The notes beneath the pieces are model-generated. The model searched no databases, was not told the DNA's origin, and was given only the letters and a program-made list of their open reading frames with translations. Positions 1 to 394 of a DNA stretch of 53,082 bases are shown piece after piece. How positions within the stretch are numbered: position 1 is the first letter of the stretch; every line of letters starts with the position of its first letter. The stretch is taken from assembly GCA_016866975.1 (NCBI GenBank), contig VGKP01000003.1, positions 1-53,082 of the forward strand. The letters run 5' to 3'. This DNA is from Candidatus Pacearchaeota archaeon (GTDB lineage: Archaea; Nanobdellota; Nanobdellia; Pacearchaeales; GW2011-AR1). The position numbers and the translations under genes were made by a program.

Positions 1-62
1 ACAAAGTGATATTTTATCCTGAACACCTTGTGGGCAGACTTATTTAACTCGTTTTCTTCCAT
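1..62 (-). CDS. tnpA: N-terminal 21 codons of a probable IS200/IS605-family Y1 (HUH) transposase, truncated by the window edge
   Basis: Hand translation gives MEENELNKSAHKVFRIKYHFV, matching the typical TnpA start (H-x-V-Y/F-x-I/L-x-Y-H-F/I-V). The HUH and Tyr motifs lie outside the window. Confidence 0.65.
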   Translation of the reverse strand, partial: MEENELNKSAHKVFRIKYHF

Positions 63-131
63 GCATCAGCGAAGTTCTAAGCGTTTATATTTTTGCTGGA
101 CGCTTTATCCCCGTGGCAAGACCACGGAGTA
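1..131 (-). mobile_element. Putative left end of an IS200/IS605-family element
   Basis: Hairpin CCGTGG-caaga-CCACGG (111-127) lies upstream of the tnpA-like start and follows TTAA (132-135, minus strand). It replaces the natural C-terminus of the DUF2784-like ORF. Confidence 0.55.
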
Positions 132-394
132 TTAACCAAAAATAAAGTGGACAAGAACTGATGCCTCCCTACTTTCTGGCCAGCAAATCTCCTTAACTTT
201 TTCTCTTGTACTGTCAAAGGGCATTTCCCTCCATAGGCTGCCTCTACAAGCCATACAAAGATGATATAACTTGCACCCATTATCCTGAATCCTCCAAAAA
301 TAAGGGCAGCGACCGACAAGATGTATAAAATCATAACTAAAATATGTGCCTTCTCCACAACTTCTGCCCAAAAAAGATATCTTTTCCTATCCAT
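77..394 (-). CDS. DUF2784-like membrane protein; C-terminus probably replaced by IS left-end sequence
   Basis: Two hydrophobic helices and a CPLTxxExxLR motif. The last ~15 residues are read from the IS-like hairpin. Confidence 0.55.
   Translation of the reverse strand: MDRKRYLFWAEVVEKAHILVMILYILSVAALIFGGFRIMGASYIIFVWLVEAAYGGKCPLTVQEKKLRRFAGQKVGRHQFLSTLFLVNTPWSCHGDKASSKNINA

Follow-up and report, generated by a model that had tools for sequence, protein, structure and literature searches.

The edge of a Pacearchaeota contig very probably bears the left end of a 552-nt tnpA-only IS200-group transposon, most likely not the mobiliser of the hairpin elements dispersed in the genome

Introduction

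What is the fragment lying at the very start of contig C3 of a Candidatus Pacearchaeota archaeon genome (GCA_016866975.1; 805 kb in 31 contigs, 89% complete), and does it encode the enzyme that moves the short hairpin elements scattered throughout that genome? The whole 53,082-nt stretch of DNA analyzed (contig VGKP01000003.1, “the window” hereafter) is this contig C3, and an earlier note, made from its letters alone, had read a minus-strand open reading frame (ORF) at the left edge as the start of an IS200/IS605 Y1 (HUH) transposase gene, suggesting the encoded enzyme as a candidate helper of dispersed two-hairpin elements that resemble palindrome-associated transposable elements (PATEs) and of which about 75 loci were recounted in the genome. 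IS200/IS605 is the most widespread insertion sequence (IS) family reported in archaea (PMC13343696). The reading arrived at here is that window positions 1-141 are, very probably, the left end of an autonomous, tnpA-only element of the IS200 group within the IS200/IS605 family, 552 nt in length and termed ISx below, and that the approximately 75 two-hairpin elements are most likely mobilised by something other than this element.

Results

A repeat collapsed at eight contig ends

The first 146 nt of the window recur at 99-100% identity at the ends of three other contigs (C23, C30 and C9), the similarity ending exactly at position 146, and all four of these ISx left ends are found at contig ends, where the flanks upstream of them differ (CCAC, GGAG, AGTT and CTTC), each then running into the pentanucleotide TTTAT. 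Four right ends (C6, C12, C1 and C20) are likewise located at contig ends and have four different downstream flanks: those of C6 and C12 encode the last 63 residues of a Y1 transposase and continue with ATG-CCCCACGG-TCTTG-CCGTGGGG-AGCTTCAC, while C1 and C20 hold only the last 20 TnpA residues with the same right hairpin and end. The contig overlaps at the ISx ends amount to 127-146 nt, which is the kind of overlap left by a de Bruijn assembler at near-identical repeats.

An exact-pattern scan found a complete copy on a 1280-nt Joint Genome Institute metagenome contig (L050; Ga0194120_10166413), which appears to come from the same population as the window genome: its right flank corresponds to the beginning of C20, and its left flank represents a fifth insertion site that is absent from the bin. 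Window 1-141 matches L050:375-515, and over its visible 146 nt the window copy shows 100% identity with the C30/L048 copy and 99.3% with the intact L050 copy. The number of sites at which ISx is inserted in this DPANN (Pacearchaeota-type) population is thus at least five. Its right-end copies (C6:1-235, the C12 end, C1:1-100 and C20:1-100) vary at two residues before the catalytic tyrosine (ADTILRY, ADIILRY and ADIIRRY), hence the copies are near-identical but not clonal. The opposite edge of the window (52970-53082) ends within a copy of a two-hairpin element; with ISx at one end and such an element at the other, both ends of C3 are repeat-induced assembly breaks.

A Y1 transposase of the tnpA-only IS200 group

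The ORF described by the earlier note (MEENELNKSAHKVFRIKYHF(V)) is present at window positions 62..3 and open at the contig edge. The 21 tnpA residues visible in the window gave no profile match on their own; the 20 complete codons, however, are the start of a complete 146-aa ORF (L050:454-894) encoding MEENELNKSAHKVFRIKYHFVFVIKYRKDLFLQNKYVETFKKICRGLEERYHMKFETIGFDEDHVHFLLQSVMKYSPSQLFRLVKSITAIQLFEEHTDIKKELWGGEFWSDGGYAGTVGEGVNADIIRRYIQQQGRSGKQLRLDNF, which scored 108.7 bits against Pfam Y1_Tnp PF01797 (cut-off 23) and 122.4 bits against NCBIfam NF033573 transpos_IS200 (cut-off 55), the right-end tnpA fragments in the genome itself reaching 39 bits. The best match of ISx TnpA among solved structures was the TnpA of ISDra2 (2XM3; E 1.4e-14, residues 5-134). 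The HUH motif (HVH) lies in D-H-V-H-F-L-L, aligned with DHVHLLL of ISDra2, and the catalytic tyrosine in R-R-Y-I-Q-Q-Q, aligned with QKYIESQ, this tyrosine being the residue replaced by phenylalanine in the mutant chain 2XO6. The proposed identity of the enzyme was therefore borne out in the sibling copy, where the extended ORF, which the earlier note had asked to be inspected for these motifs, has both of them. With regard to a TnpB or omega-RNA partner, a search for a TnpB-type gene (PF07282) across the genome returned no match, which places ISx in the tnpA-only IS200 group. A RAYT identity was considered and rejected, as ISx TnpA reached no more than 30.6 bits with NF047646, whose cut-off is 80, and its gene is multicopy, residing inside a transposon with its own ends.

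Ends, hairpins and guides

ISx has no terminal inverted repeats; instead, an 8-bp, TCTTG-loop hairpin is located subterminally at both ends, 12 nt (left) and 8 nt (right) from the termini, and the right end always reads ...AGCTTCAC. The 12 nt on the left separate the element boundary from the hairpin foot, and an A-T lies directly 3' of the left hairpin (see Table 1 for coordinates). The CCGTGG/CCACGG hairpin noticed earlier is there (arms 122-127 and 111-116), its stem being 8 bp in fact (C129-G122 with C116-G109), whereas the element start that had been placed at TTAA has to be moved: the element begins one base after TTTAT, and TTAA sits within the linker and guide (TTAATA). The hairpin 17-mer is found a single time in the window, where chance would give 0.04 occurrences. 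In the window copy, T128 pairs with G110 as a G.T wobble; three of the five left ends have C at this position, and the T variant is also seen in a second copy (C30).

Table 1. Coordinates of ISx, its flanking target, the gene it interrupts and the two other copies or elements referred to in the text
Feature	Sequence	Position	Strand	Remarks
ISx left end (very probable)	window	1..141	-	141 nt at the start of the 552-nt element, whose remainder collapsed during assembly
TTTAT, target and left cleavage-site pentanucleotide	window	142..146	-	flanking DNA, outside ISx
Linker TTTTGGTT	window	134..141	-	between TTTAT and AATA
AATA, putative left guide tetranucleotide	window	130..133	-	directly 5' of the hairpin foot
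Left subterminal hairpin (IP-L)	window	109..129	-	8-bp stem CTCCGTGG (129-122)/CCACGGGG (116-109), loop TCTTG (121-117)
ATAAAGCG...	window	from 108 downward	-	between the hairpin and the tnpA start
tnpA, first 20 codons MEENELNKSAHKVFRIKYHF	window	3..62	-	starts ATG GAA GAA AAC; next codon GT- cut by the contig edge
DUF2784-like gene cut by ISx	window	77..394	-	native part 147-394 (or 142-394); codons 84-105 and stop from TTTAT and IS DNA
Complete ISx copy	L050	375-926		552 nt; TTTAT 370-374; tnpA 454-894
ISy	C10	1-607		left ends C21:1-202 (reverse strand) and C2:96735-96941; right flanks C10 and C18:122 onward

The same organization is seen in relatives with 60-81% identical TnpA, found in roughly a dozen genomes belonging to the same family (Pacearchaeota, Woesearchaeota and Nanoarchaeota metagenome-assembled genomes, MAGs). 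Their left ends read TT(T/G)AT, then 11-15 nt ending in (A/T)ATA, then the hairpin, so that AATA or TATA is conserved at the guide position, and their right ends consist of GATG, the hairpin and AGCTTCAC. Among 18 distinct hairpins of the family, the TCTTG loop and the closing GG/CC pairs are invariant, whereas compensatory changes affect the central pairs. Of the cells, 97.9% are paired, and 4/8 pairs show compensatory changes on both sides; none of 500 shuffles reached the observed covariation score, and slid controls were 36-58% paired. The right-end signature CCNNNNGGTCTTGCCNNNNGGAGCTTCAC gave 15 matches, all of them in DPANN archaea, in a search of 185,579 species, each represented by one genome. 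One further ISx-type tnpA, in a genome of the same genus (L012, G214:C96), carries a short palindromic insert (GAGAATTCTGG...CCAGAATTCTC) that breaks it at about codon 20, and represents a degraded copy.

At the level of sequence consistency, TTAT with AATA and TCAC with GATG in ISx satisfy the register C1:G2, C2:G1 and C4:G4, as do the corresponding sequences of IS608. In IS608, the left cleavage site TTAC is recognized with the left guide AAAG and the right cleavage site TCAA with the right guide GAAT, accompanied by the pairs A+16:T-3 and A+17:T-4 (PMC3201880, PMC5934647), and the left cleavage site is flanking DNA that is preserved (PMC3201880).

Target site and an empty site reconstructed in a relative

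TTTAT precedes 5/5 left ends of this population as well as those of three relatives, while the right flanks are mutually unrelated; a second ISx subgroup has TTGAT as its left flank. The consequence of insertion can be read in a relative from Pacearchaeota RS_7_11 (L007), whose ISx-type element lies within a histidine-phosphatase (His_Phos_1) gene on the opposite strand. Joining the flanks with TTTAT kept yields a 242-codon ORF, whereas keeping 0 or 3 nt breaks the frame, and the joined ORF matches His_Phos_1 with 81 bits in two stretches, the best of which (residues 16-109, profile positions 1-94) spans the joint with its length unchanged. This gene is restored only when TTTAT is kept, which matches the IS608 rule of a preserved flanking left site, and the expectation voiced earlier, namely insertion 3' of a 4-5-nt AT-rich target without duplication, agrees with this and with the 5/5 left flanks.

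The truncated DUF2784-like gene

In the window itself, the insertion has cut a DUF2784-like gene, as had been surmised: its Pfam DUF2784 match (residues 10-83, corresponding to profile positions 4-77 of 109) ends exactly at the IS boundary, and homologues in two relatives (G110 and G218) extend about 40 residues further. Nothing convincing was found in the assembly for the missing 3' part, and among 5.8 billion proteins the search for an intact ortholog returned only the window's own protein.

The dispersed two-hairpin elements and their relation to ISx

The two-hairpin elements are preceded by TTAT in 44/63 of their 5' flanks and by TNAT in 54/63; their stems are 7 bp with TTTCAA or TTTTAA loops, and the distances from site to hairpin foot are 18 and 20 nt, as opposed to 12 and 8 nt in ISx. 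Smith-Waterman local alignments of the ISx ends with the elements did not exceed z 1.9 against shuffles, and blastn-short likewise gave no match better than chance. There are no TCTTG hairpins in the genome outside the eight ISx ends, hence no mini-ISx there. True mini-ISx do exist elsewhere: in the Nanoarchaeota archaeon H41-bin129_1 (JBBTAG01 contigs), three loci (L054, L056 and L058) consist of a left and a right end without tnpA, about 165 nt in all, that keep the TCTTG hairpins and are found at TTGAT, TTCAT and TTTAT sites, the copy at L058 additionally carrying an insert of about 25 nt within its left hairpin loop.

The occurrence of the two kinds of elements across genomes is dissociated as well, given that one genome of the same genus (G094) has about 49 element matches and no Y1 gene, while nine genomes outside the genus that have ISx relatives have no two-hairpin elements; this comparison rests on incomplete MAGs, from which repeats are often lost during binning. 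A genome from another genus of the same family (G191; L086-L089) has a two-hairpin family of its own with the same architecture (TTTAT|GTC..GAAAA-hairpin..GAGCATCC..CAAA-CCACACC TTTCAA GGTGTGG..TTTTTTGAT|), some copies of which contain extra nested modules.

A second Y1 element

The genome contains a second IS200-type element, ISy, whose tnpA (C10:122-586; 155 aa) scored 77.8 bits against NF033573 and encodes a protein 25% identical to ISx TnpA. An identical ISy TnpA was found in at least three genomic contexts (public contigs and this genome), and thus ISy is also multicopy. ISy and the two-hairpin elements have hairpins built on a common plan (NAAA, a 6-8-bp stem and a TTT(C/T)AA or TTTA loop), and the similarity goes beyond this plan: the left hairpin of ISy (AAATCTA-CCAGCC-TTTA-GGCTGG-AGT) matches the B' module hairpin of the elements at 22/26 positions (z 7.2), one ISy left-end variant carries the 22-nt terminal tail of the elements, AGTGGCGCATCGTTTTTTTGAT (z 13-16), and the right end of an ISy relative (L075) matches the module-B hairpin together with 10 upstream bases at 25/27 positions (E 7e-5, in a search of 171 kb that included 143 kb of ISx-type loci, none of which was matched). 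Overall, the ISy ends reached z 7.2-16.5. For the left cleavage site of ISy, the guide rule admits several registers, each with a loose fit. An element module next to Y1 genes was sought in same-genus genomes, and none was seen in the loci examined.

Discussion

Comparison with known elements

IS200 of Salmonella and Yersinia is a bacterial element of about 700 nt with a single small tnpA and short, hairpin-bearing ends. ISx resembles it in having just such a tnpA and such ends and in scoring above the transpos_IS200 cut-off, and differs from it in being 552 nt long and in having a right-end pattern that was encountered only in DPANN archaea among the species representatives searched. The best solved relative of ISx TnpA is, as described, that of ISDra2 from Deinococcus radiodurans (2XM3, 2XMA and 2XO6), with the HUH motif and the tyrosine aligned, and the likeness extends to a TTNAT-type pentanucleotide target, subterminal hairpins and insertion without duplication; ISDra2 has TTGAT as its target (PMC5934647), a pentanucleotide that is likewise seen as the left flank in one ISx subgroup. 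Unlike ISx, ISDra2 has a tnpB, and the tnpA-only, 552-nt ISx is further set apart by its perfect 8-bp stems with the TCTTG loop, its DPANN host and the low identity between the two.

With IS608 of Helicobacter pylori, ISx has in common a left cleavage site outside the element, 5' of the hairpin, a right site inside it, 3' of the hairpin, guide tetranucleotides that directly precede the hairpin feet and for which the ISx sequences fit the same pairing register, and the A-T 3' of the left hairpin, which resembles A+42/T+43 of IS608. The distances, however, are shorter in ISx (12 and 8 nt) than in IS608 (19 and 10 nt), T stands in place of A at the third guide position, the ISx stem has no extrahelical base, ISx lacks tnpB, and the TnpA of IS608 is the weaker match to that of ISx (E 3e-8). 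As for PATEs and the systems of repetitive extragenic palindromes with their RAYT transposases, the ISx family does yield PATE-type minis of about 165 nt (in the Nanoarchaeota MAG mentioned above), but the roughly 75 hairpin elements of the present genome are not ISx derivatives, and ISx TnpA is not a RAYT, being multicopy with its own ends. All in all, ISx is an ordinary, routine new member of IS200/IS605 in a DPANN archaeon.

If ISx works as IS608 and ISDra2 do, a dimer of TnpA would bind both of its hairpins on the top (tnpA-sense) strand while that strand is single-stranded at the replication fork, and the tetranucleotides preceding the two hairpin feet would locate the cleavage sites through DNA-DNA pairing (TTAT with AATA on the left, TCAC with GATG on the right). 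The top strand might then be excised as a circle, whose right end-left end junction would read ...AGCTTCAC|TTTTGGTTAATAC..., and be pasted 3' of another TT(N)AT. Indirectly, the orientation of ISx, which agrees with that of the other single-strand elements on its contigs (23 vs 6), is in keeping with such a strand-specific mechanism.

Points that weigh against this reading

Several observations nevertheless speak against the picture drawn above. The window copy ends after codon 20, its integrity thus being judged from sibling copies, and a search for the neighbouring genes in other assemblies found no empty sites for the insertions of this genome, since all of the contigs retrieved there break at the same IS. 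Pairing of the flanks by their open reading frames gave only one combination that looks biological, the C9 left flank with the C12 right flank, and this most natural pairing is in frame only with 0 or 3 nt of TTTAT kept, which conflicts with the TTTAT retention at the empty site of L007. Finally, ISx (TTTAT in all five cases) and the two-hairpin elements (by the flank counts given above) belong to the same target class, and this, along with the same guide/cleavage logic, means that cross-mobilisation by ISx may be possible.

The ORF at the C9 end has an N-terminal motif, MVYKKYIKKDGKRYGPYYYES..., and is cut by ISx just before an expected membrane helix, while the C12 ORF starts with a helix. 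The motif (M)VYKKYIKK-G-K-YGPYYYES (C9:32401-32520, also C4:45815 and C28:1253) forms the N-terminus of proteins of very different lengths, many of them large (up to about 4,800 aa), that are encoded in 144/201 genomes of the family, and it appears to be an N-terminal signal or anchor used throughout the lineage.

Which enzyme moves the two-hairpin elements?

The explanation that survives best is that ISy is the helper of the dispersed elements and the ISx at the window edge an unrelated co-resident, a proposal to be held tentatively, since we would put its chance a little below even. It draws on the end modules common to ISy and the elements, that is, the hairpin, tail and L075 matches listed above. 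The order of modules in the elements, with a right-end-like hairpin at the 5' side and a left-end tail at the 3' side, is nonetheless unlike that of a simple internal deletion of ISy; the tail, which the other ISy variant lacks, may be the product of recombination between an element and the left end of ISy; the left flank of ISy is TTAAT rather than TTAT; and neither type of Y1 gene occurs in G094, which has approximately 49 element matches. Judged by sequence, ISy appears to be a better candidate for the helper than ISx, and the caveat attached to the original suggestion, namely that ISx might not be the cognate enzyme, was right, given the end modules that the elements share with this other Y1 element.

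That ISx TnpA itself acts in trans as the helper, reading the shape of the hairpins while the elements' own guides direct cleavage, seems very unlikely. Besides the common target class, it could be argued for by the orientation of ISx, which, as had been noticed, agrees with that of the two-hairpin elements on shared contigs (23 vs 6); neighbouring elements, however, also agree among themselves (32 vs 6), and replication-directed single-strand insertion predicts a shared orientation for any member of the family (PMC5027513). With the target being set by the guide DNA of the element itself and the orientation by the direction of replication, neither feature discriminates between enzymes. It can further be said in favour of ISx that it is intact and recently active, as its near-identical copies indicate, and that, if the inner hairpins are taken as the binding sites, the element ends fit an IS608-type register (TTAT with AAAA, TGAT with CAAA). 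These points are to be set against the absence of similarity between the ISx ends and the elements, the differing geometry, the dissociated occurrence across genomes, and the genuine mini-ISx, which retain the ISx hairpins; moreover, the TCTTG loop and the GG/CC closing pairs are invariant down to about 60% TnpA identity, which argues for a sequence-specific reading of the ISx loop. Of the helper claim made in the earlier note, the class of enzyme was therefore right, whereas its assignment to ISx is not supported by the ends, by mini-ISx in this genome or by co-occurrence, and ISx TnpA is probably not the enzyme that moves the hairpin mini-elements. Should it, against such long odds, turn out that one transposase of a DPANN lineage also mobilises some 75 elements with unrelated hairpins, hairpin recognition would have to rely on shape and be far less strict than it is in IS608 or ISDra2, and the element load of a 0.8-Mb symbiont genome would be explained.

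Least probable is the notion of a dead relic at the window edge (a left end on its own, or a copy with its tnpA broken past the contig edge), for which one may cite the mere 141 nt visible, the outer-stem wobble at T128 and left and right flanks that cannot be paired, but which has to contend with the near-perfect identity of the visible 146 nt to the C30/L048 and L050 copies, with the assembly breaks at all eight ends, whose overlaps of k-mer length are those to be expected if the repeats are full-length and near-identical, and with the presence of the T variant in a second copy.

Conclusions

With the edge of the window read as the left end of ISx, the element accounts for eight contig breaks in the MAG and for one truncated gene. 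It also represents a very small (552-nt) archaeal single-strand transposon whose target, guides and hairpins can be read out, with covariation in support. With regard to the hairpin mini-transposons of this organism, ISx is removed as the prime suspect, and a second Y1 element with shared end modules is pointed to instead.

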